Source: a virus (lineage: Duplodnaviria; Heunggongvirae; Uroviricota; Caudoviricetes). Taken from it: 37,884 nt of DNA. This document shows, in pieces, positions 2,621 to 36,752 of this stretch. Location: the IMG/VR virus record IMGVR_UViG_2654587996_000006, one strand, 5' to 3'. Each line of letters starts with the position of its first letter. Position 1 is the stretch's first letter. Under the pieces are notes generated by a model that had not been told where the DNA came from, did not search any database, and saw only the letters and a program-made list of their open reading frames with translations. Position numbers and translations under genes: made by a program.

Positions 2621-2732
2621 AACTGAAGTTGCCCTGAAAATGAAATTTTTTTGCACAACCGCAGAACTTTTCCGCAGGGCATCAGTCTTAATTAATGCCA
2701 CTGCTTTTCTTTGATGTCCCCATTTTGTGGAG

Positions 2733-2775
2733 CCCATCAACCCCGCCATTTCGGTTCAAGGTTGATGGGTTTTTT
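2733..2775 (+). terminator. rho-independent terminator-like hairpin plus T6 downstream of ybjL, near the prophage right boundary
   Basis: cccatcaacc ... ggttgatggg (10-bp stem) followed by tttttt; may overlap the attR core. Confidence 0.45.
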
Positions 2776-2855
2776 GTTGCCTGAAATTTATACCGTTTAA
2801 AATCATGATGTTAGAAGCACTGTTTTTTAACGATGGCGACAAAATGGCGGCAGCG

Positions 2856-3164: not shown

Positions 3165-4265
3165 TCATTCCATTTCGAAATCATCAATTCTCACTTCAAG
3201 CTCCAGACTGGTCGTAAAACCGTTATCCGGGCTGACGGTATGTGTCAGAGTCGTAATGGTCCATTCCGCATCATCTATCGGCTGTTTAAAACCACTGACC
3301 TTCACAGGCATTTCCGTGTAGAGATCTGCCCGCCCTTCCGCCAGTTGTAGCGAGAATGACGCAACTCCGCGTTGCAGGCGTTCCCACTGCATTTTCGCCG
3401 CTCGTTCGGCGTTGCTCCGATTGGCATAGGTGCGATTAAGTACCAGCACGTTTTCATCCGTACCCACCAGGTAATCGCCCTGCTTCGCTTCCGGCTCTTT
3501 CTTCTGCTTCTTAGTCCTGCGCTTACGCTTCACCATGGTGCTTTCTTTCTTCGCGGGTTCGCGGGTATGCAACCAACTGGCAATTACGCCCGTATAGGCT
3601 CCGCGATCTGCCAGGGTAAAGCGGTGACTGTCGCCGTCCTTACGTGTGATAGTGATCACCGGTAGTGGTTTACCGCTGGCACTTTTGCCCTGTCCCTGCC
3701 GGATGAATAACAGATTGCCATTTTTCACCGATGCAATGGCACCGTACTGGCGCGCCAGCCGCATCAAAAAACTGCCGTCACTCTCATTAGTCTGGTCTAT
3801 ATGATCCACGGGTTTCTCCGACAGGTCTTTACCCAGTGCCATCTTCAGTTTGTGACGCGCAGCTATTTCCTTCACCACTTCCCCGACAGTGGTCTTGTGC
3901 CACGATTTTTCACGGCGGGTATTCAGCGTTTCCCGAAAATCAGCACTTCGCGCCCGGATAGTCAGGCGATCCGGTGCGCCAGTGTGTTCAATCTCGTCCA
4001 CCGTGAATGCCCCTTTCGGGACAAGCGGCTGCCCTTTCCAGCCCAGCGCCAGCGTAATGACCGCACCACGGCGCGGCAGCACGATTTTTCCGTCGGCGTC
4101 GTCCAGCTCCAGATCAAGCTGGTCCGCTTCAAAGCCCCGGTTATCCGTCAGCGTAAGCCCCATCAGGCGGTTATCCAGCACAGTGGTGATATCCTTGCCT
4201 TCAATACTGATGCTGAATGCGGGAGTTTTGTTGCCTTTGTTAAGCAGTTCAGAGCTGAAATTCAC
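3165..4265 (-). CDS. D: tail protein D (late control gene D family)
   Basis: 366-aa ORF at the end of the tail operon; P2 gpD-like sequence and position. Confidence 0.85.
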   Translation of the reverse strand: MNFSSELLNKGNKTPAFSISIEGKDITTVLDNRLMGLTLTDNRGFEADQLDLELDDADGKIVLPRRGAVITLALGWKGQPLVPKGAFTVDEIEHTGAPDRLTIRARSADFRETLNTRREKSWHKTTVGEVVKEIAARHKLKMALGKDLSEKPVDHIDQTNESDGSFLMRLARQYGAIASVKNGNLLFIRQGQGKSASGKPLPVITITRKDGDSHRFTLADRGAYTGVIASWLHTREPAKKESTMVKRKRRTKKQKKEPEAKQGDYLVGTDENVLVLNRTYANRSNAERAAKMQWERLQRGVASFSLQLAEGRADLYTEMPVKVSGFKQPIDDAEWTITTLTHTVSPDNGFTTSLELEVRIDDFEME

Positions 4266-10143: not shown

Positions 10144-10710
10144 TCAGGGAGATTCATTGCTCTTATTTGCCGGAAATTTTCTATAAATGGTAGAAACGCC
10201 TACATCAAAAATCAGTGCAATACGCTGTCTTGATTCTCCGGCCTCGAGTAAACGCCCAATCTGTGCCCACTGTTCGGTGGTCAACTTAGGACGGCGTCCA
10301 CCTACTCTGCCTTTGGCACGAGCTGCAGCCAGCCCTGCCCTGGTACGTTCAACTATCAGTTCGCGTTCCATTTCAGCCAGGGCACCCATGACATGAAAAA
10401 AGAAACGGCCCATTGGGGTGCTGGTATCAATACTGTCAGTCAGGCTTCGGAAATTCACGCCTCGCTGACGCAACTCTTCTATCAGCGTAACAAGATGCCG
10501 CATACTGCGCCCCAACCTGTCCAGCTTCCAGACAACCAGCGTGTCTCCTGCCGATAGTGTCCTGAGCAGTTTTTTCAACCCTGGTCTGTCGGACTTAGTG
10601 CCACTGATTTTATCCTCAAAAATCCGCTCACATCCCGCGCAGTTCAGTGCATTACGTTGCAAATCGGTGTTCTGGTCATTTGTTGACACGCGTACATAGC
10701 CAATAAGCAT
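10144..10710 (-). CDS. pin: serine DNA invertase (Pin/Gin/Cin/Hin family)
   Basis: MLIGYVRVSTNDQNTDLQRNAL... with the catalytic Ser in YVRVST and a C-terminal HTH; nearly identical over its length to enteric invertases (closest by memory to e14 Pin). The ORF as given starts 2 codons earlier at 10716. Confidence 0.9.
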   Translation of the reverse strand: MLIGYVRVSTNDQNTDLQRNALNCAGCERIFEDKISGTKSDRPGLKKLLRTLSAGDTLVVWKLDRLGRSMRHLVTLIEELRQRGVNFRSLTDSIDTSTPMGRFFFHVMGALAEMERELIVERTRAGLAAARAKGRVGGRRPKLTTEQWAQIGRLLEAGESRQRIALIFDVGVSTIYRKFPANKSNESP

Positions 10711-10777
10711 GATCATCCCCCTGAATAAAAACCGGGGATGATGCCAGTTAGCCGTAATCGCTGCATTTTCTTAAACG

Positions 10778-10792
10778 TTGGTTTGGGAGAAG
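10778..10792. repeat. left inversion crossover site (inverted repeat TTGGTTTGGGAGAAG)
   Basis: 15-bp perfect inverted copy of 12625-12639; both copies encode GLGE in frame. Confidence 0.7.
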
Positions 10793-11127
10793 CGGCAAAA
10801 CGAAATGTGGGAACAGGGGAAAATCAGATACCAGATATGTCTGCATTCCCATCTGGCAAAAACTGGTTTCAGTTACCAAGTGGTCATATTGTCCAAATGT
10901 TTTCGATGAATGTTTATGGGGCGGACACTAACGGAACTACTGGTAATTTCCCTATTGCATTTCCTTCAGGTGCACTTGCTGTTAGTGCCTTATGGTCTGA
11001 TGGCACATTAACGGCTGCTCCGACCTTTAAACTTATGGGGTACACGACAACAAGGACATCAGTAACCTTAAAAGTATCAACCGGAAATGGTTTGTATGGA
11101 ACTATGATTATTGCAATAGGAAGATAA
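10793..11127 (+). CDS. alternative tail-fibre C-terminal segment (silent in this orientation, no start of its own)
   Basis: The open frame continues in frame from the crossover site (...VGLGE|AAKRNVG...); after inversion it would fuse to the constant N-terminal part of H. Confidence 0.55.
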
Positions 11128-11128
11128 T

Positions 11129-11572
11129 ATGAATCAATATATTTATTCCCCTTCGGAAAATGCATTTTATGCTGTTAATTTAAAAAATACTTATGAAGTA
11201 AATGGAACATGGCCCGCTGATGCATTAGATATTCCTGATAACATTTCTGTAAAATATATGGCGAAACCGCCACAAGGGAAAATCCGAGTTGCAGGGGTAA
11301 ATGGTTTTCCCACATGGGCTGAAATACCTCAACCATCACATGAAGAACTTATTCAACAGGCAGAATCAGAAAGACAATTATTGCTTAATCAGGCCAACGA
11401 ACACATGAACAGTAAGCAATGGCCAGGTAAAGCCGCTATTGGTCGTCTGAAAGGTGAGGAACTGGCGCAATATAATTTGTGGTTGGATTATCTGGACGCA
11501 CTGGAACTGGTCGATACTTCCAGTGCTCCAGATATTGAATGGCCTACGCCTCCGGCAGTTCAGGCCAGATGA
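11129..11572 (+). CDS. alternative tail-fibre assembly chaperone (Tfa/U')
   Basis: 147 aa; C-terminal ...LWLDYLDALELVDTSSAPDIEWPTPP matches the conserved C-terminus of G (...LDYIDAVTVTDTSTAPDVIWPELP). Confidence 0.75.
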   Translation: MNQYIYSPSENAFYAVNLKNTYEVNGTWPADALDIPDNISVKYMAKPPQGKIRVAGVNGFPTWAEIPQPSHEELIQQAESERQLLLNQANEHMNSKQWPGKAAIGRLKGEELAQYNLWLDYLDALELVDTSSAPDIEWPTPPAVQAR

Positions 11573-24970: not shown

Positions 24971-26635
24971 CTATAAATTGAATTTATGCATTCTTAACTC
25001 ATTCAATTTACTCTCTCTAGAAATCTTCATTAAAGCAGCCTTAGCTTTTATAGAAACAGATCTCGTTTTCTCATTTACATTACCAATACGACTAAATTTG
25101 AGACAAGTAGCAACGTGGGATGTTAAATGATTCCCATGCAAACTTTTAAAATAATGATAATAATCATCTTCAGTAGCGCTACTTAATACTTCTATATCAT
25201 CATCATTCCAGCCATTTTTTCCACTGAGCGCATCCAACACCTCACCTAAAGTGCGCTTGGGTGAATCAGTTAGATACACACCTTTAAATTTCTCAATGAT
25301 TTCTGCATCTTTGATTGGTCTAAAAAGATAAAAATTATCCAGATCAAATAACTCTATTTCACTTCGTCTTTCTTGAATATAATACGTAATCATCTCAGAT
25401 GCCTTTGTATCTTCACCTAGTTCACGGAAGACCCCAACAAGGCTATCAAGATCATTAGGAGATACTTGAGTTACACAATCCATAAAGCACTTATAAAAAT
25501 GAGAAACAACTTCTTCTACATTATCATCAAAACTATTATGGAATAAATCCCATGCACTTCTAAATGAGTTTGACTTTTTATTTTCTAAAGCCTGTTTATT
25601 TATAATTTTTATTGCCTCATTAAACTCTGTCATATCTATATAACCATTCCTGACTAGCTTTGCTATTTTCCTATCCAGCTCATCAACCCTTGTAAAATTA
25701 TAGCTCAGTAAAATATCCTTCCATTTTTTTTCTTCTTCTGTTACATCCTTTTTGCCTATTGAGTAAATACTTTCCATAGATTCGAGGAAATCCAAAGAGG
25801 GAACATCCTTATCTGATTTAGAGCAATAATAGGCCCAATTCATTAATACAACCGTATGCAAAAATTGCATTTTAACTTCACTTTCGCACTCTTCAAAAGC
25901 TCGCCATGCATTTTCTACGTTTCGCTCTATTTTCTTTAAAACTCTAATATTTTTGATGCCTAACGAAATAGTATATTGTGCTAACGGCTTATGAAAATCC
26001 TTACTATTATCATATGCTATCTGTGCAGATTCACTGGGCGTAGGTGAAAAATGCAACTCAATGTCAATTACTTTTTCTTTAAACTTTTCATAATCAGCAA
26101 CTTCTTTAGTACCATCATTGAGTAAAAGTATAACCTTACATTTCTTTTGTTCTTTTAACAAAGAAATAAGACCTAATACATCTTTAAGTTCTAATGACGA
26201 TCCTTTACGCTCTAAATCATCTATGCAAATTAATGAATCTGACACAGACATAAATGACCATGCTTCTATTGCAGGAGCGGCAGACTTTATATACGGCAGC
26301 TCTTTCAATTTACTCCACGAACCTCGCCCCAATATTTCAAGCATACCTAATGTATTTTTTCTTAAACTATCTAAACTTGGCTCATGTCCTATGGAGTCTT
26401 TTGAAACTGCATTTTCAAAAATGGAATATTTTAATCTATCTAACGAAGATATACCGAAAAGAGAGACATAGGAATAATGCGAAGCAGAAATCATATTTTG
26501 ACACTTTGCTTCCAGAAGAAACTTATTCCAACTAAATGTCTTACCAACTCCCCACTCTCCTTTAATTGCCATAACCGAAGGGGCTGATTTAGAAACAAAG
26601 TTTAGAATTTGTTCTCGTACCAAGCTTAGCGACAT
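24971..26635 (-). CDS. KAP-family P-loop NTPase (cargo gene, candidate anti-phage factor)
   Basis: 554 aa; Walker A GEWGVGKTF matches the KAP signature GxWGxGKT; Walker B LICIDDLER; strong RBS AAGGAG; visibly AT-rich compared with the flanking phage genes. Confidence 0.8.
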   Translation of the reverse strand: MSLSLVREQILNFVSKSAPSVMAIKGEWGVGKTFSWNKFLLEAKCQNMISASHYSYVSLFGISSLDRLKYSIFENAVSKDSIGHEPSLDSLRKNTLGMLEILGRGSWSKLKELPYIKSAAPAIEAWSFMSVSDSLICIDDLERKGSSLELKDVLGLISLLKEQKKCKVILLLNDGTKEVADYEKFKEKVIDIELHFSPTPSESAQIAYDNSKDFHKPLAQYTISLGIKNIRVLKKIERNVENAWRAFEECESEVKMQFLHTVVLMNWAYYCSKSDKDVPSLDFLESMESIYSIGKKDVTEEEKKWKDILLSYNFTRVDELDRKIAKLVRNGYIDMTEFNEAIKIINKQALENKKSNSFRSAWDLFHNSFDDNVEEVVSHFYKCFMDCVTQVSPNDLDSLVGVFRELGEDTKASEMITYYIQERRSEIELFDLDNFYLFRPIKDAEIIEKFKGVYLTDSPKRTLGEVLDALSGKNGWNDDDIEVLSSATEDDYYHYFKSLHGNHLTSHVATCLKFSRIGNVNEKTRSVSIKAKAALMKISRESKLNELRMHKFNL

Positions 26636-26728
26636 AACTCACTCCTTGATTGCGAATGTTAATTATATATTTTACCAAAAATCTTAATCACCACCTATAG
26701 AAAGGTGAAAGATGGGTGCTGGCGCGCG

Positions 26729-26747
26729 CTCGTATCCCCGCCACGCC
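26729..26747 (-). other. candidate cos cohesive-end site
   Basis: Minus strand reads GGCGTGGCGGGGATACGAG; the first 13 nt match my recollection of the 186/P2 19-nt cohesive end (GGCGTGGCGGGGAAAGCAT); GC-rich island in an AT-rich region, in the expected place between Q and the replication genes. Confidence 0.4.
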
Positions 26748-26786
26748 TGCCCGCTTTGTGTAGTGGTTTTCATGCACCTGCATGAC

Positions 26787-26806
26787 ATAAGCAAAAGCCC
26801 GCCAGC
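26787..26806 (-). terminator. hairpin gcccgcca-gctc-tggcgggc with a short U-run on the minus strand
   Basis: 8-bp GC stem; minus-strand continuation is TTTTGCTTATG; lies between the HNH gene and the KAP gene. Confidence 0.4.
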
Positions 26807-26929
26807 TCTGGCGGGCATCAGCAAAAACGATCCTCAAACGATCATGCGATTTCATGCGGCATAGACATGCGTTGGCAAAAATGTACGAAATACTCAGCTT
26901 ACAGGAAATGGTCTTTTTCCAACCTCCAG

Positions 26930-27649
26930 TTAGCCAAAGCAGAAACCAATATTGCAATTTGAAACTCCACAGTTGTGAAATTGATGTGGACCGACTCTTA
27001 GCTTGTGTTCGTCTCCTACAATCCGAGTCCCCTTAACCAACATATCTAATCTTTCCACAATCAATCTTTCAGGCGCATCAACTTTAATAATTAAACGAGG
27101 ACCTTTCCTTTTTTCTATAATAGTTATTCTAGGACCAACAACCTGAACATCCCAATGCCTTGCACTACAAACCCACTCATTCTTAATTAATTCAAGATTA
27201 ACAATACCTTGACTATCGTAAAATTTACCCGAAATAAGAAAAGCATTATTTTCTTTTTCAATGGTTAACAATGGCTCATTTTGAAACATTATTGGTACAG
27301 TACAGGATTCAAATGTCGCACCACCAAATATTATTGTTGGATGCCTATCAGAAAAGTCCAATATATCGGCCACATTCCCTTTTTGTAAGGCTGCAGGAGA
27401 TTCCATTGCTTTAATTATTTTCTCTTTAGAGTAAAGACGTTTCGTTACTTTCGCATGGCACGTAGGACAAAGTAGTGCTATTGCATTTGGAGAGTGCTCC
27501 TTTGCATCAGCGTATGTGGGAATTACATGCTCATACTCAACAATGGGAGAAGCACAAACAACGCAACCAAAGCCACAGCGCTGCCTTACCTCCAGTTTTA
27601 CAGGTTCAGGAATTGTTCTAGATAACCCATGCTTGTTAATAGTTGTCAT
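26930..27649 (-). CDS. HNH endonuclease-motif protein (cargo gene)
   Basis: 239 aa; N-terminal CGFGCVVC ... EYEHVIP ... N ... CPTCH, the Cys4/His-Asn-His layout of HNH nucleases; AT-rich. Confidence 0.7.
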   Translation of the reverse strand: MTTINKHGLSRTIPEPVKLEVRQRCGFGCVVCASPIVEYEHVIPTYADAKEHSPNAIALLCPTCHAKVTKRLYSKEKIIKAMESPAALQKGNVADILDFSDRHPTIIFGGATFESCTVPIMFQNEPLLTIEKENNAFLISGKFYDSQGIVNLELIKNEWVCSARHWDVQVVGPRITIIEKRKGPRLIIKVDAPERLIVERLDMLVKGTRIVGDEHKLRVGPHQFHNCGVSNCNIGFCFG

Positions 27650-28357: not shown

Positions 28358-30772
28358 TTAATACAGGTTCCGCCACTTATCATCTTCCCGCAAACGCTGG
28401 TTCCGATAGAAGATACGCAGGCCTGCTCCTGACGGAATACTGCCGCCGCGAAGGAGTAAATCGACCTCTTTCTCGCTACCATCAAATCCTCTGGACTTCA
28501 GCTCATAGACGAGCTGCAGTCGCTGATGGTCTGTAATTCGCTGTTTGTAGTCTTTACGCCGTATCGGTTTAACCAGGCGTAGCCTTGCTGCCAGTTCCCG
28601 GCGCTCTTTTTTGCTCATACTGTGCAGGAAATCGTGCAACTCCTTGTCATCCATGCTGATAATATCCGTTCTGGGGTCCCCATCTGCTGATTTATCTTTC
28701 TCCTGTTGGTTCAAATTTTCAGCAAGGGGACAGTTATTGCCACGAGTCCAAGGGGCGCAAGCGCCCTGGTCGGCTACCGCCTCCTGAACGTCAACGGCTT
28801 TACGAACCATTTTCCACTTCACTGCATGAGTGCAGATCTTGCCCTCTGCAATGGGTGACCAGATGCCATAAATACGAATACCGTGATCGCCATAAGCGGT
28901 CGGCTCTTCGTTAATTTCATAAGCTGTTCTGATAAGGTGATATTTGCGGGGAACCAGTACGCCGCCCTGCTTCATGATGTAGGTGGCAAAACAGCCAGCA
29001 TCAGCGGCAGCCAGGATGGCATCAAGGCGCGGGTCATCCAGTACCGGCGCACCTGCTTTTTTGTCACCCTGTTGCCTTGCCGCCTGACCAGCCAGCAAGC
29101 GAAGTTCACGGTACGCCTGACGCCCCGGAATACCAAAGAAGCGGAACTGCTGAACACGATGCAGAGACGCCCAGGCATTAACGTATTCGGCGTTATCACG
29201 CAGGGATTTACCCGTTTCCTTGCTGATCTCGCCAGCCAGACCACGTCCGTCAATGTTCTTACTGATGTATTTCGCGATGTAGCTTGTCGGCGTTCCTTTG
29301 CGCGGGTTTATCAGCTCAGACTTAAAGCGTGGACCCGTGTTATTGCCCAGTTCCTCGCGGTCTTCACGGATGGCAAACTTACGCAACAATGCAGTAATGG
29401 CGCGGCGGTCTTTTTTGCGCATGAAACACATGAGATGCCAGTGCACAGTACCGTCATGGTGCGGCTCAGCCACCCGCACGCCATACCAGCGCAACCCGGC
29501 TTTGTGCATAGCCTTACGAAATGCAGCAAACATGCCGACCAGATAATCGCTGCTTTGTCTTACCGTCGCATTTGTCCAGGTTGGGTTTGGTCTGCCGTTA
29601 TTGAGCGTAGAATGGAAACGTGACGGACAGGTAATGGTGTAGAAAACGGCGCAGTCACCACGCATTTCCGCGATAAGCTCCAGACCTTTAACACAGGCCA
29701 TCATCTCATTGCGGCGGTGCGCCGGGTTGCTGCTGCTGGCGTTTACCACGTCTTCCATATCCAGCGTGTCGCCGTCTTCGTTCACCAGTTCATGAGAACG
29801 GAAAAACTCCAGCGACTTGCGGCGCTGCTCACGTTTATGCGTCACTGCTTCATAGCTGACATAGGGAGATGCTTTTTTGCTGACCAGGCAGACAGCACGC
29901 AACTGCTCTTCCCGCCATTCGCAACGTATCTTCCACAATTTTCGATACCACCAGTCGGCGCAAAGCATACGTGCCAGCGAACCCGGTATGAGTTCATAGG
30001 GCACGGGTTTGCGGCGGTTTCTTTTCCGACGGAGTTTCTCAAACGCAGGCGGGATAACATCCAGACGCAGGGTTTCCGCTGCCACCTTTTCCCATGTCTT
30101 GCGGATTTCTTCTGGCTTAACGTCATCGGAGGCATACAAATCACCACAAGCGGCCTCAAGACACATGCTCATATGCGCTGCTACCAGGGTGGACAGGCGT
30201 TTTACCTGATCCTGACTCATTTCAGGCAGGATCAGCAGGCCCTCAAGCCCTTGATGGCTTGCCATAAAACGGAAAGAAGCGGATAGCTGACTGTCGCGTA
30301 CATACTCCAGTCGCTCCAGACATGGCTTAATCGTCTCACGCAAATAGCGGGAATAAGCCTTTGGCCTGCCCAGGCTGCTGAAGTATTCGATACGTTGCAT
30401 CAGCGGCTTGCTGATGTGGGTGGGCTGGGCGCTGACGTCCGCCAGAATGACCATGTCCGGGTTAAAACGCTGCTGCTCATGCGCCAGCTTTGCCCGACTA
30501 ATGAGATTATCCTGCTCCATTTCGCGCTGGACAGGATCACGGGATTCATTAAAGAAATAACGCTCCCAGACCTGCTCACTCAGTGCATCGCGGCGCAGCT
30601 GTTCCTGCTCGTTATCGGCAGCGTACAGAGTGATCATGTTTGAAAGTGCAGACTCCGGCGCAACTTCCGCCGGGTCCAGATAAGGGTTAATGGCCTTTTT
30701 CGGGCCGTTCCATGAAAATGCTGCAGCGGCCTCGTTAAAGCCGCTAGAGTTGCTCATATCGTCATGACTCAT
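28358..30772 (-). CDS. A: replication initiation protein A (HUH rolling-circle endonuclease)
   Basis: 804 aa; HUH-type motif GTVHWHLM and tyrosine motif YIAKYISK; P2 gpA-like. Confidence 0.85.
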
Positions 30773-31626
30773 ACACGCACCTCGTACACAGCAGAACTAT
30801 CCACGCCACGCGAAGGATCAAATCCCACCCAGCAGCGCGCCCCGGAAACAGCAATGATTTCTGTTGCAGATTTACTCTCGCCAGCCGACACGCCGATGCT
30901 GCGTTTTGCCTTGATGTAGTGGTGAGTGAAATTGCGATACAGCGAACGAATCAGGGATGTGTCACTGTTAGAAACAATGACCGGATGACCTTCAGATGAT
31001 CGATGTTCAAGAACGGATGCCAGGTGATACTGGTCATCCTCAGTGAAGCCATCAGTGTGATAGCCGGAAAACGTACCGTCATAAGGCGGATCGCAATACA
31101 CCACATCCCCCGCCTTCAACATCGCCAGCGTTTCATCAAAGCTGGCGCAGATAAACGTTGCTCGCTGGGCTTTTTCTGCAAATTTGCGAATTTCTTTTTC
31201 AGGGAAATACGGATTTTTATAATTCCCGTAGGGAATGTTGAAATGCCCGCTCTTGTTATAGCGACATAACCCACGGTAACCATGACGATTGAGATACAGG
31301 AAATATACCGCTTTCATGAAATCAGTAATTTCAGTGGAGTAATTAAACTCCTGCCTTATGTTGTAATAAGCCACCTCCCTGTTTGCTTCCTCAAATAAAG
31401 CTCTGGCACGAGATATAAACGCCTCGCAATCAGCAGCAACCTTTTTATAGAGGTTGATTAAATCAGGATTAATATCCGCAACAAGATAGCTGGGGTAATC
31501 CGTCTCTATCATCACAGCACAAGAACCCGCGAAAGGTTCAACCAGTCGCGGGCCAGCAGGAAGGTATTTTTTCAGTTCCGGCATAATGGCGGTTTTATTA
31601 CCCGCCCATTTCAGGATGGTGCTCAT
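30769..31626 (-). CDS. dam: DNA adenine methyltransferase (Dam-like, orphan)
   Basis: ORF 30769-31740 trimmed to [11 protein letters not shown]; AdoMet motif EPFAGSCAV and catalytic DPPY; start overlaps the upstream stop (ATGA) and the 3' end overlaps the A start. Confidence 0.8.
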
Positions 31627-31850
31627 ACAGCACCTCCGTTGTAATGTTTGCCTTTCAGCTCTGCGATTTCCTGACAGGTAATGCAAAGCTGCACACCCGG
31701 AATGGCGCGACGTCGTGCTGGCGGAATTGGTGCTTCGCACTCAATGCAAAGCACGCGGGATACGCCCGGCGTTTTGGCGCGGGCAGCACGGATATGACGC
31801 TGGCGTTCTTCTTCAACGCGCTGCTGTACGAGATCCATTGCATCAGCCAT
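31623..31850 (-). CDS. TraR/DksA-family C4 zinc-finger protein
   Basis: 75 aa; CIECEAPIP...CITCQ four-Cys motif. Confidence 0.7.
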   Translation of the reverse strand: MADAMDLVQQRVEEERQRHIRAARAKTPGVSRVLCIECEAPIPPARRRAIPGVQLCITCQEIAELKGKHYNGGAV

Positions 31851-32089
31851 CAGTGGATCTCCTGCGCTTCGTTCTGGATTGCTTCAGCAGTCACACGCAG
31901 CAGTTCTGCCGCTTCGACGTGGTTTAGCTGGCGGGATGTGATATGACACGCCAGGCTATCAAGGCGAGCTGCCATTGCTTCAGCCCTTGCCCGGCGTTCT
32001 TCCAGACGAGCCTCTGTCAGTAAAATATTAAGCCCTGCATCATCCGGTCCGGTTTTAGTCGTGAGGGTTTCAATATTACGCATAATCAA
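31850..32089 (-). CDS. hypothetical early protein
   Basis: 79-aa ORF packed into the early operon with start/stop overlap. Confidence 0.5.
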   Translation of the reverse strand: MIMRNIETLTTKTGPDDAGLNILLTEARLEERRARAEAMAARLDSLACHITSRQLNHVEAAELLRVTAEAIQNEAQEIH

Positions 32090-32150
32090 TTCTCCTGAAT
32101 TTAGATAAAGGGATGCCTGGCGGGTTTACGCCATGAATTTCATTAGTTGG

Positions 32151-32492
32151 TTAATTCGGCATGGTTAGCCGTCTGGGAAATAAGCTCACCACTGCACGAA
32201 AATGATTCATTGCTTTAATCAGCTCCCGCTTTTCGTCAGTGGTCAGCTCATTAATGCTGATGCTATGACGTTCAGCTGGAATTTTTGCCATAAAGAATAT
32301 GGCAGCCAGTGCCCGTTTATTTTGTTCATTATTGATATCCCGTGGATCACGCATATCTTTAATAAACCGCTCAAGCTCTGACTCAATATTCAGGCCAAAA
32401 ACTTTCGCTCTTAATTCCGCAATGTGATTAAGTCCATTCAGGCGTTCACCGGGGCTTAATGGAACAGTCGCCGCAGCGCCATTAATTGCCAT
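32151..32492 (-). CDS. hypothetical early protein
   Basis: 113-aa ORF; a possible GGGGA RBS lies upstream. Confidence 0.5.
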   Translation of the reverse strand: MAINGAAATVPLSPGERLNGLNHIAELRAKVFGLNIESELERFIKDMRDPRDINNEQNKRALAAIFFMAKIPAERHSISINELTTDEKRELIKAMNHFRAVVSLFPRRLTMPN

Positions 32493-33069: not shown

Positions 33070-33528
33070 ATGACTAAACAAAGCTCCGAATACTTCCAAT
33101 TACACTACTGTTATTACCTTGAACTAATGACAGCAACGTTCCATGGTCGAGCTGATAAATTAATGACAGCAATCCAACTTATAAGCGGAACAGCTGTATT
33201 TGCTAATACAGGTCTGGAATGGTTGTTCGCTTTTCCTGTTGTTGTAATCGCAACAATCCAACTTGTATGGCAACCAGCTATTATTGCGGAACGAGCAAGC
33301 GTACAAAGCCGACAATATGGTGAGTTGCTTTACGCCGAGGATGAATTGTCTCCACAGTTCATTGCACAAAAATTGAAAGCTTTGCATCACTCTGACTCCA
33401 CAACATTCGGATCTTTGTTAAACCCTGCCTACAAAAGAGCTGCTATTGCCTGTGGTCGGGTTGACGATGTAAACCTCAGCTTCCAAGAAAAACTTTTCGC
33501 TTGGTTCGCAGGTTGTTTGCCACGTTAA
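33070..33528 (+). CDS. small predicted 2-TM membrane protein (cassette gene, antisense to the early operon)
   Basis: 152 aa with two hydrophobic helices (LMTAIQLISGTAVF, LFAFPVVVIATIQLVW); the only plus-strand ORF in this minus-strand operon; bracketed by the 60-bp direct repeats. Confidence 0.5.
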   Translation: MTKQSSEYFQLHYCYYLELMTATFHGRADKLMTAIQLISGTAVFANTGLEWLFAFPVVVIATIQLVWQPAIIAERASVQSRQYGELLYAEDELSPQFIAQKLKALHHSDSTTFGSLLNPAYKRAAIACGRVDDVNLSFQEKLFAWFAGCLPR

Positions 33529-33709
33529 CCATAAATCTTTGTAGGAATCGCTTTTTATTTCTTCCCCGGTAAGCCTGTTGCCGGGGTTGTAATTCAAAAC
33601 TTGGATGCCACTTTTTCCCACAAGGTAAATAAATCCAGCCGTGACCGTAGTGCATTGCCGGACTTTGTTTTACCAGCAGCGATGCAAATGATGGTTCTTT
33701 CGTCAGCAT
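33476..33709 (-). CDS. small basic protein immediately downstream of cII
   Basis: 77 aa from MLTKEP with RBS GAGGTG; its coding sequence contains repeat copy 2. Confidence 0.4.
   Translation of the reverse strand: MLTKEPSFASLLVKQSPAMHYGHGWIYLPCGKKWHPSFELQPRQQAYRGRNKKRFLQRFMVNVANNLRTKRKVFLGS
33633..33692. repeat. 60-bp direct repeat, copy 2
   Basis: See copy 1; the copies are 803 bp apart. Confidence 0.85.
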
Positions 33710-34552: not shown

Positions 34553-35209
34553 GTGAAGGCTCCAAAAGAAGACTTCTGGTTCAACTTTAAGATCGCTTTT
34601 GGAATCTGTCAACGAATTTTGGATTTCTTTGGAGGATTTGTGGATTTCAATAGCGGCGGTAAGAAAGCCATAGAACGTTTGGTTGAAGCATACGGGTTCG
34701 GTACCCGTCAGGCTCTCTGTGATCATTTAGGTGTTTCTAAGAGCACCATGGCAACGCGTTATATGCGTGATATTTTTCCGGCAGATTGGGTAATCCAGTG
34801 CGCCCTTGAAACGGGTACCTCGCTTAATTGGCTAACAACAGGGCATGGTTCAAAGCAAGCATCAGCAAATACAAATACTATAGAAGTAGTAAAATATTTA
34901 TTGTCTGATGGAGCATTGCAGGAAGACGGTTTTTATATTTTTGATAAGGGATTTCTACCCTCTACGTTTAAAAAACCTTTTGTCATCACAGATAACAATT
35001 CTGAATTTATTTGTGATAAAGAATTTGATGATATACGTGATGGTAAATGGGTAATAAGTATTGATGGCGAAATAACAATCCGCGACATCACTCGTTTACC
35101 CGGTGGAAGAATTTTCGTTGAAGGTGGAAACAGAGCCTTCGAGTGCAAGATAGAAGATGTTGAAATAATTGGAAAAATTATAAGCTTAACAGTTAAGTAT
35201 GTTAGATAA
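34553..35209 (+). CDS. cI: CI immunity repressor (186 type)
   Basis: N-terminal HTH region (RLVEAYGF...ALETGTSLNWLTTGHG); the real start may be the in-frame GTG at 34640 (about 189 aa, preceded by GGAGG), which would leave a longer apl-cI switch region. Confidence 0.7.
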   Translation: MKAPKEDFWFNFKIAFGICQRILDFFGGFVDFNSGGKKAIERLVEAYGFGTRQALCDHLGVSKSTMATRYMRDIFPADWVIQCALETGTSLNWLTTGHGSKQASANTNTIEVVKYLLSDGALQEDGFYIFDKGFLPSTFKKPFVITDNNSEFICDKEFDDIRDGKWVISIDGEITIRDITRLPGGRIFVEGGNRAFECKIEDVEIIGKIISLTVKYVR

Positions 35210-35420: not shown

Positions 35421-36752
35421 ATGAGCACAGATATAACTTTCGATATACGTGATGAATATAAAAGAAAAGCCATTGCAGAAAAAATAATAAGTTTGCTAGA
35501 GTCTAATATTCCTGTTTCACCTATGGTCATAGATGGGGACTGGGGGACTGGAAAAACAGAGTTTTCAAAAAAGTTAGCATCCTTAATTGAAATAAACTCG
35601 ACCAATCATAAAGTAGTTTATATAGATGCTTTTACTGAAGATCACAACGATGCTCCCATACTTACAATAATGGCCGCAATTGCAGCTCTATATAATAGCG
35701 ATGAAAAAAAGGAATTAATATCTAAGGCATTGCCAGCCCTCAGATTCGGACTTAAGACTGTACTCAAAGCTGGTGCTGGTTGGGTATTAAAACAAAATGC
35801 GGATGAAATTAATGAGGAATTTGAAGAGGTTATCAAAGACGCTGCAAATTCAGCTATCGATGGAACCATCGAGGCTCTGTTAGAAGATCATATCGAGGCA
35901 CAAAAGAACGTTCTTGCTCTAAAAGAAGTACTAACCAAATTAGCTGGAGAAAGTAAACTAACAATAATTATAGATGAGTTAGACAGATGTAAGCCTAGTT
36001 TTGCCATTTCTATTATTGAAAATATAAAACATGTTTTTGATATAAAAAACATTAACTTTTTATTAATTGCAAACACAACTCAACTAAAAGCATCCATAAA
36101 TCATATCTATGGCTCTTCTGTAGACTCCAACCGTTATCTTGACAAATTTATAAAATTTACATACAGCCTTCCTGTTACCTTTAAGGAAGATAATTATAAT
36201 GACACTTTAACTTCCAAAAATCATTGGATGATGCTATGTGAGCAATCTGAAAGGCTGACCGCTGCAGTAGAAGCCAGCGAAGATATTTTCTTACAGTTCA
36301 TTGAAAGTAGAAAATTATCATTACGTGAGGTTGAAACACTTGCTAGATATGTTGAAATATACCAACTACTATCAGGCGACAAAATTAGCAACAAATATAT
36401 TTATGGATATTGTTATTACAGGACTCTAGCGATAATAATCTACACTTTTAACCGAGAGTTAGCTCTCAACTTTCTTGAAGATAAAGTTGATGCTCAATCA
36501 ATCATGAAATTGTTTGGTTTATCTAAATTTTCATATCAAACAAGTGAATATAATGTAGATAATTATGAATATGCTATATTTGGAATAGTTTACAAATACT
36601 TATCTGAAAACTCATCTCTTTTACCTGCTGAGGAAAATATAAAAAGACAATGGGCAGAAATGAGTGAATACCATTTTTTAAAAGGTGGTGGCGGTATTGG
36701 TGAACCAACAAATATTGTGAAAGATGCTTTAAAAGTTTTTTTACTTCAGTGA
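35421..36752 (+). CDS. KAP-family P-loop NTPase, second copy (cargo gene, candidate anti-phage factor)
   Basis: 443 aa; Walker A IDGDWGTGKTEF matches the KAP signature; Walker B LTIIIDELDRCKP; AT-rich; lies between cI and int. Confidence 0.8.
   Translation: MSTDITFDIRDEYKRKAIAEKIISLLESNIPVSPMVIDGDWGTGKTEFSKKLASLIEINSTNHKVVYIDAFTEDHNDAPILTIMAAIAALYNSDEKKELISKALPALRFGLKTVLKAGAGWVLKQNADEINEEFEEVIKDAANSAIDGTIEALLEDHIEAQKNVLALKEVLTKLAGESKLTIIIDELDRCKPSFAISIIENIKHVFDIKNINFLLIANTTQLKASINHIYGSSVDSNRYLDKFIKFTYSLPVTFKEDNYNDTLTSKNHWMMLCEQSERLTAAVEASEDIFLQFIESRKLSLREVETLARYVEIYQLLSGDKISNKYIYGYCYYRTLAIIIYTFNRELALNFLEDKVDAQSIMKLFGLSKFSYQTSEYNVDNYEYAIFGIVYKYLSENSSLLPAEENIKRQWAEMSEYHFLKGGGGIGEPTNIVKDALKVFLLQ

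Follow-up and report, generated by a model that had tools for sequence, protein, structure and literature searches.

Why should a prophage of Escherichia coli carry a DNA adenine methyltransferase (Dam) gene directly in front of its replication initiator gene? This question is raised by IMG/VR virus record IMGVR_UViG_2654587996_000006 (Duplodnaviria; Heunggongvirae; Uroviricota; Caudoviricetes), a stretch of 37,884 nucleotides which was analysed as a whole and is called the window below. The region concerned forms the distal part of the early (lytic) operon in an E. coli prophage that belongs to the P2/186 family and is closest to Felsduovirus and Kapieceevirus phages. The Dam gene, located at 30769-31626 on the minus strand, is flanked by a gene of the TraR type and by replication gene A, whose product is gpA. 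The explanation that is considered likely as a whole is that an orphan Dam of the early operon would be made only in lytic growth, would modify the phage's own DNA at GATC, and would be coupled in its translation to gene A.

First of all, the 285-amino acid (aa) product of this gene is an orphan Dam-family (D12 class) N6-adenine DNA methyltransferase. A sequence-only reading of the window had called it a DPPY methyltransferase of the N6-adenine class, and the profile searches agree with this: the protein matches PF02086 (MethyltransfD12) with an E value of 2.8e-77 and 260 bits against a cutoff of 22, along profile positions 1-253 of 253, and the NCBIfam model TIGR00571 'dam' with 325 bits against a cutoff of 114.85. 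It also matches PHROG 56 ('DNA methyltransferase'), among the PADLOC models it fits 'oMTase, orphan methyltransferase' best (E 3.8e-111), and the solved structure it matches best is that of E. coli Dam (PDB 2G1P; E 2e-73, with about 55% of the residues identical along the full length). The catalytic motif IV, DPPY, is located at residues 179-182 (D179-P-P-Y182) and is conserved in 109-110 of 111 homologues. In the mechanical list of open reading frames (ORFs) the gene appears as a 323-aa ORF from GTG 31740, which was rejected as the gene: since the homology with E. coli Dam starts at residue 4 and all annotated relatives use ATG 31626, the latter is taken as the real start. The score against the housekeeping-Dam equivalog model NF008152 is 288.6 bits, under the cutoff of 441 bits, and therefore the window Dam is a member of a paralogous phage lineage and not an orthologue of the host Dam.

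As for the target, the residues of E. coli Dam (EcoDam) which make the GATC contacts are K9, Y119, N120, L122, R124, P134 and Y138 (PMC4417163). Six of the seven, namely K9, Y119, L122, R124, P134 and Y138, are identical in the window Dam and nearly invariant among the 111 homologues. The equivalent of N120 is an arginine at residue 118 of the window Dam (codon at about 31273-31275), and the same arginine is found in 111 of 111 homologues of the prophage clade, while the position of R137 is N or H in this clade and N in the window Dam. The earlier reading had left the specificity of the enzyme to be predicted, and because six of the seven EcoDam contact residues are conserved, GATC is the predicted target. 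T4 Dam and DpnM also target GATC, and both of them, although much more divergent, match the same profile as the window Dam. Moreover, the gene is well preserved: the homologous copies in related viral contigs are intact full-length ORFs in 62 of 69 cases, and the pairwise ratio of nonsynonymous to synonymous substitution rates (dN/dS) between the window Dam and the 62 intact homologues is 0.10-0.25, so that judged by these two measures the gene is under purifying selection and clearly functional.

Compared with the housekeeping Dam of E. coli, the window enzyme thus shares the fold family, about 55% identity, the DPPY motif and six of the seven GATC-contact residues, but it differs in N120→R and R137→N, in being phage-borne and probably expressed only in the lytic state, and in a C-terminal tail of about 25 aa which carries the ribosome-binding site of gene A. 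Among other phage enzymes, P1 Dmt, T4 Dam, VT2-Sa Dam and M.EcoGV are likewise orphan D12-class methyltransferases encoded in phage genomes; GATC specificity is tabulated for the M.EcoGV and M.EcoVT2 homologues, and the P1 and T4 Dams are described as GATC methylases. They differ from the window Dam in identity (35-45% where measured) and in genomic context, and P1 Dmt has a defined role in methylation of the pac site, while the window Dam is not known to have such a role. In addition, the database proteins P0008, P0009, P0096, P0056 and P0060 have a Dam domain fused to a late control D domain or a gpA domain; the late control D fusions (PF05954) are 456-496 aa long and are found in long E. 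coli contigs, and the 90% cluster holding the window Dam has an 804-aa gpA as its representative. These fusions are probably derived from prophage deletions, frameshifts at ATGA overlaps or clustering artefacts.

The second point is that the methyltransferase stands alone. No restriction enzyme was found in the scans of non-structural window ORFs against Pfam and PADLOC, and none is listed in the full annotation of the NC101 prophage (identical in the Dam block) by the Prokaryotic Genome Annotation Pipeline (PGAP) or in the records of annotated relatives. The statement that no restriction partner is evident and that the enzyme is an orphan thus stands, the best PADLOC model being the orphan one as well; that is to say, Dam is a solitary methyltransferase and not half of a Type II restriction-modification system.

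The third point is how the gene is joined to its neighbours. According to the ORF list and the raw sequence, the DUF2732 gene, the TraR-like gene, Dam and gene A follow one another on the minus strand. At 31623-31626 the stop TGA of the TraR-like gene (31625-31623) shares bases with the start ATG of Dam (31626-31624) in an ATGA overlap, and at 30769-30772 the stop TGA of Dam (30771-30769) shares bases with the start ATG of gene A (30772-30770) in another, which is kept in relatives and is a probable translational-coupling junction. Both overlaps had been claimed from the sequence, and every coordinate proves right on the minus strand. There is also a third junction, absent from that earlier description, where the TGA of the DUF2732 gene and the ATG of the TraR-like gene overlap by 1 nt (TGATG). 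Shine-Dalgarno-like sequences precede all three starts, each within the 3′ end of the preceding gene: AGGAG is 8 nt 5′ of the TraR ATG, GGAGG is 6 nt 5′ of the Dam ATG in the TraR-like gene, and GAGG is 7 nt 5′ of the gene A ATG in Dam. The stop/start overlaps are real and conserved, but commonplace in this phage and not distinctive, for the NC101 prophage, with its identical block, has at least 12 pairs of same-strand neighbours that overlap.

What precedes gene A was then surveyed in 80 viral contigs with a gpA 77-99% identical to that of the window, of which the 77 non-truncated ones were used for the junction. The overlap of the preceding gene with the A start measures 4 nt in 55 of the 77, 1 nt in another 8 and 14-20 nt in a further 5, so an overlap into A is found in 68 of 77 relatives, whatever gene precedes. 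In 7 of the 77 the slot is empty and TraR is directly 5′ of A with a gap of 16-25 nt; the remaining 2 were scored with a 1-nt gap, and since this junction also holds an upstream in-frame ATGA, the score is probably an artefact. Dam is present in 69 of the 80 loci, and Dam alone is the most frequent content of the slot. In other loci Dam is accompanied by a PAPS-reductase-like protein (homologue of 186 Orf84), a TGT/DpdA-like protein (phrog_887, E 2.4e-96) or a C5 cytosine methyltransferase; elsewhere the space between TraR and Dam is taken by a DUF3850/ASCH protein or an RNase T-like exonuclease, or there is an IS1 insertion. These other slot genes, found in close relatives next to Dam or in its place (contig:positions L033:2946-3956, L040:3162-3992, L066:2826-4010, L078:2682-4001, L010:2848-3150 and L047:2533-3117, corresponding to the window slot 30769-31626), overlap the A start where they are directly upstream of A. 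Among more distant P2-like phages, SEN5 and SI7 have two methylases upstream of A, namely Dam and a C5 methylase, and one more downstream of it, while P2 has only Orf83 (DUF5405) and no methylase (PMC3091744). In summary, the operon has the overlap into A as a conserved design, and Dam belongs to a set of cargo genes which can replace one another and most of which modify DNA; this pattern suggests that the slot between the TraR-like gene and A holds exchangeable DNA-modification cargo. A stronger form of this idea is that the slot is a dedicated anti-restriction hotspot, always translationally fused into the initiator, so that modification keeps step with replication, and that the Dam clade with N120R may differ from the host Dam in its preference; this is speculative and rather unlikely in full. 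The literature search for an earlier description of such a DNA-modification slot (P2-like phages with DpdA) found nothing relevant.

An experimental precedent for coupling at this junction comes from phage 186. According to its GenBank record, the A protein appears to be translated only if translation proceeds to the end of orf84, and a terminator early in A acts if A is untranslated; a literature search for a paper on this orf84 coupling found nothing. In 186 (orf84 to A, 4 nt) and in P2 (orf83 to A, 11 nt) the upstream gene overlaps the A start as it does here, but the product of that gene is PAPS-reductase-like in 186 and of the DUF5405 family in P2, where the window has a methylase. By analogy with the 186 record, the junction into A may be translationally coupled in the window too. 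A counterpart of the 186 tM1 terminator was sought early in gene A and rejected, the candidate being a weak hairpin just 3′ of the A start with no proper T-run.

The expression of Dam can be approached through the organization of the operon, which matches the layout of the early operons of P2 and 186. Within the 145-bp gap between an apl/cox-like gene and the divergent repressor gene, placed as in P2/186, the consensus scan found a predicted early lytic promoter at 34584-34612 on the minus strand (TTGACA, 17 nt, TAAAGT), which would drive the TraR-like/Dam/A operon. The CI-type immunity repressor gene is at 34640-35209 on the plus strand (PF07022 and PF16452; start taken from the PGAP annotation of the NC101 prophage). 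No promoter-like site on the minus strand upstream of Dam was found by the consensus scan from 34500 to 30700, and no consensus site for an internal terminator or promoter near the TraR-like gene and Dam was found within 30700-32100. Because Dam sits in a CI-controlled early operon without a promoter of its own, it is expected to be silent in the lysogen and transcribed only once CI repression is lifted. For a prophage Dam homologue of E. coli EC958, neither a transcript nor a methylation motif was found (PMC4659465). A methylome of the lysogen, which had been proposed as a check, would probably be uninformative, because the early operon is repressed and GATC is already methylated by the host Dam. 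As a separate observation, a GATC at 34591-34594 is located in the spacer of the predicted early promoter and abuts the -10 hexamer on its upstream side (TTGACAgattccaaaagcGATCtTAAAGT).

Taken together, the proposed course of events would be as follows. In the lysogen, the CI repressor would shut the single upstream promoter, and no Dam would be made. After induction or infection, one transcript would serve the TraR-like gene, Dam and A; the TraR-like protein, by analogy with P2 Orf82, would bind the secondary channel of the host RNA polymerase and reprogram host transcription, and ribosomes that end Dam at its UGA would restart at the overlapping AUG of gene A, so that A would be made only if the upstream ORF is translated. 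Dam would then methylate GATC on the fast-replicating phage DNA while the host Dam is limiting, and the packaged genomes would be fully methylated; host Dam has been reported as limiting for high-copy DNA (preprint 10.1101/2020.06.22.160242). That is to say, Dam most likely methylates the replicating phage DNA in lytic growth and is silent in the lysogen, as far as the sequence can tell. The benefit would most likely be self-modification of the exported DNA, i.e., protection from restriction enzymes blocked by GATC methylation, and/or escape from hemimethylation-dependent host processes such as MutH and SeqA. Because C5 methylase, DpdA-like and PAPS-reductase-like genes use this slot too, self-modification against restriction is favoured over a specific regulatory circuit, and the gathering of different DNA-modifying enzymes upstream of A points to it as the selected function.

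Several points weigh against this explanation. The target site, the timing of expression and the coupling are all deduced from the letters of the genome, and each gene has a Shine-Dalgarno sequence of its own, so that A could be translated independently. As a small caveat, N120R and the N or H at R137 may indicate a modified sequence or substrate preference. Enterobacterial hosts already have a Dam of their own, so that the selective benefit of a further GATC methylase is unproven; T4 Dam, too, has an unclear role in vivo (EcoSal review PMC12707154). Moreover, since seven relatives with an empty slot have TraR directly before A and P2 has no methylase, Dam is dispensable for the replication module.

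Other explanations start from the same data. If Dam served mainly for regulation inside the phage, GATC methylation at the early promoter, the origin or packaging signals would time transcription, replication or packaging, and some observations fit this: the predicted early promoter has a GATC right next to its -10 (34591), two GATC sites (28835 and 28885) are located near the origin-like sequence, P1 needs Dam methylation of its pac site, and many orphan methyltransferases may regulate viral cycles (PMC12707154). However, the origin-proximal sites are not conserved in P2/186, no cluster is formed and GATC is mildly depleted overall; P2 and relatives of the same gpA lineage work without any Dam, and the host Dam would supply the same mark anyway, so a mainly regulatory role is thought improbable, although it deserves some weight. 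The clade-invariant N120R at a base-contacting position, together with N or H at R137, could instead be read as a relaxed or shifted specificity, or as a preference for single-stranded or rolling-circle DNA, giving broader anti-restriction than the host Dam; the slot is shared with other DNA modifiers of the anti-restriction type, and semi-specific phage orphan methyltransferases which protect only the exported DNA have been described (PMC12707154). This is less probable still, because the discriminator R124 and the contacts L122/P134, K9/Y138 and Y119 are all conserved, the identity to E. coli Dam is about 55% over the full length, and T4 Dam and DpnM match the same profile at greater divergence; a close relative, going by the title of a paper of 1990, has 'Dam methylase function'.

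A role in the lysogen or in restriction finds still less support. Prophage methyltransferases can change host phenotypes according to the literature, and modulation of gene expression was among the possibilities raised by the sequence-only reading, so that Dam might be a lysogenic-conversion gene which is expressed from the prophage and alters host expression epigenetically. The gene is nevertheless embedded in a repressed early operon between replication genes, without a same-strand promoter-like site upstream from 34500 to 30700, its predicted target duplicates that of the host Dam, and the EC958 homologue is transcriptionally silent, which makes lysogenic conversion very unlikely. Least probable of all, to the point of being negligible, is a restriction-modification or methylation-dependent system formed by Dam with the HNH nuclease at 26930-27649 (239 aa, phrog_6544, PF01844 with E 2.4e-5), the sole nuclease-like cargo. 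This protein is encoded about 3 kb from Dam in a variable tin/old-type hotspot between the DinI-like and portal genes, next to a KAP-like P-loop protein, and its HNH domain gives a marginal match to a model of type IV methyl-directed restriction enzymes (E 0.0095). But the match is limited to the HNH motif, and gene A, a small ORF and the DinI-like gene stand between the two genes. Besides, of the 5426 complete E. coli genomes 1244 carry the Dam block and at most about 38 have high-identity matches to either hotspot cargo gene, i.e., Dam is commoner than HNH by a factor of at least 30; ST512-KPC3phi13.2 and RE-2010, phages whose Dam block is 95-99% identical, lack HNH and have unrelated hotspot cargo (Abi-alpha, AIPR). 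HNH as a partner of Dam is effectively refuted by this lack of co-occurrence.

The distribution of GATC sites was also considered as a possible signal. In the window, 116 GATC are observed against 159 expected, a ratio of 0.73 (mild depletion), and the ratios for comparison are 0.72 for CGCG, 0.49 for CTAG and 0.52 for GGCC. Avoidance of GATC was dropped as a signal, being similar to that of CGCG and milder than that of CTAG and GGCC; it has already been reported for prophages (PMC4659465). Clustering at the origin was dropped as well: the sites at 28835 and 28885 are 80-150 nt upstream of the origin-like sequence and are not conserved in P2 or 186, and no GATC cluster was found in the window.

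The names given earlier to the two neighbours of Dam hold. The TraR/DksA-family C4 zinc-finger gene is located at 31623-31850 on the minus strand and encodes 75 aa; the product scores 43.5 bits against a cutoff of 24.9 (E 3.1e-11) with PF01258 and 65.8 bits against a cutoff of 59.7 with TIGR02419, also matches phrog_54, and shows the CxxC...CxxC pattern. By BLASTP it is 47% identical to P2 Orf82. Its closest known counterparts are P2 Orf82, lambda Orf73 and F-plasmid TraR. Of the N-terminal DxxDxA motif, on which activity in this family depends, the window protein has D3 and D6, but V at position 8; P2 Orf82 also lacks A8, and is active though weaker, binding RNA polymerase in its secondary channel and inhibiting rrnB P1 (PMC9239242). 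Replication gene A at 28358-30772 on the minus strand encodes a rolling-circle nickase of 804 aa, the replication initiator, which matches PF05840 (Phage_GPA) with E 3.6e-128 and was aligned with the A proteins of P2, 186, SEN5 and SI7. Inside it, at 28730-28753 on the minus strand, alignment to the annotated P2/186 origins located a homologue of the origin nick-site region (CCTTGGACTCGTGGCAATAACTGT, compared with CCTCGGAGTCCTGTCAATAACTGT in P2), which is unique in the window. On the other side of the TraR-like gene, also on the minus strand, are the DUF2732 gene at 31850-32083, equivalent to P2 Orf80 and 186 Orf79 (PF10809, E 2.9e-29, and annotations), and the early-operon gene DUF5347 at 32151-32492 (PF17282, E 3.7e-33).

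As for the occurrence of the block, its 1.5 kb show 100% identity with prophages in E. coli NC101, NGF1 and others, and the annotation there lists 'DNA adenine methylase', 'TraR/DksA family transcriptional regulator' and 'replication endonuclease'. The block is carried by about a quarter of the complete E. coli genomes; several Klebsiella phages match it at 99% identity and Salmonella phage RE-2010 at 95%, with like annotation and overlaps. The exact Dam protein is a 'MULTISPECIES' RefSeq protein of Enterobacteriaceae, found on at least 1000 contigs. RE-2010 gp10, SopEPhi orf8, ST512-KPC3phi13.2 gp07 and NC101 prophage WP_000104133 share the gene position between the TraR-like gene and A with 4-nt overlaps, and the Dam genes of Felsduovirus/Kapieceevirus-type prophages are 95-100% identical in DNA, nothing material being different except the hotspot cargo elsewhere. 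For a protein 94% identical to the window Dam, the source record gives the name 'retron EC67 DNA adenine methylase', and the SopEPhi record also ties Dam to retron EC67. The name goes back to the paper of Hsu, Inouye and Inouye in PNAS in 1990, whose title credits the retron Ec67 element with Dam methylase function; to judge by that title, a near-identical enzyme was described in 1990. A paper on a Klebsiella Fels-2-like prophage with the same gene set cites the element as Dam-encoding (PMC7826664). The public annotation of thousands of genomes therefore already covers the Dam gene together with its family, orphan status and position, none of which is new; Dam is an ordinary, long-known component of a very common prophage family and carries little weight as a discovery.

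The rest of the window contains several further features. The left side holds a host ybjM-like gene, a ybjL-like transporter gene and the host small RNA RybB, and the integrase is on the right. The rybB gene (2700-2778, plus strand; Rfam RF00110, 105 bits) has the host transporter gene on one side and, on the other, gene D (3165-4265), where the late genes of the prophage end, and the attachment site may be at or next to rybB; the Rfam scan of the whole window found only RybB, and nothing in the TraR/Dam/A region. The hotspot cargo at 24971-27649 on the minus strand consists of a 554-aa KAP-like P-loop protein (PADLOC candidate PDC-S49) and the 239-aa HNH protein. The two are found together in no complete E. 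coli genome, and each half matches different genomes at 99% identity, so the cargo is a mosaic defence candidate, possibly of two genes. Another KAP-family NTPase (443 aa, 35421-36752, plus strand; PADLOC PDC-S20 with E 2.4e-171, and weaker similarity to PifA and QatA) is encoded between the CI repressor gene and the integrase gene and is present in the NC101 prophage too; it is a probable second defence or moron locus. Inside the early operon but on the opposite strand, a 152-aa ORF (33070-33586, plus strand; phrog_6315, no match in Pfam or NCBIfam) has its own terminator-like hairpin at 33564-33586, is flanked by two copies of a Fil-family gene and is absent from ST512-KPC3phi13.2 and RE-2010; its appearance is that of a moron which has entered a duplicated fil gene. 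Finally, a serine invertase gene within 10144-11572 (Resolvase and HTH_7, 190 aa, minus strand) adjoins two short plus-strand ORFs and tail-fibre/assembly genes, which suggests that host range is switched here by tail-fibre inversion of the Gin/Cin type.

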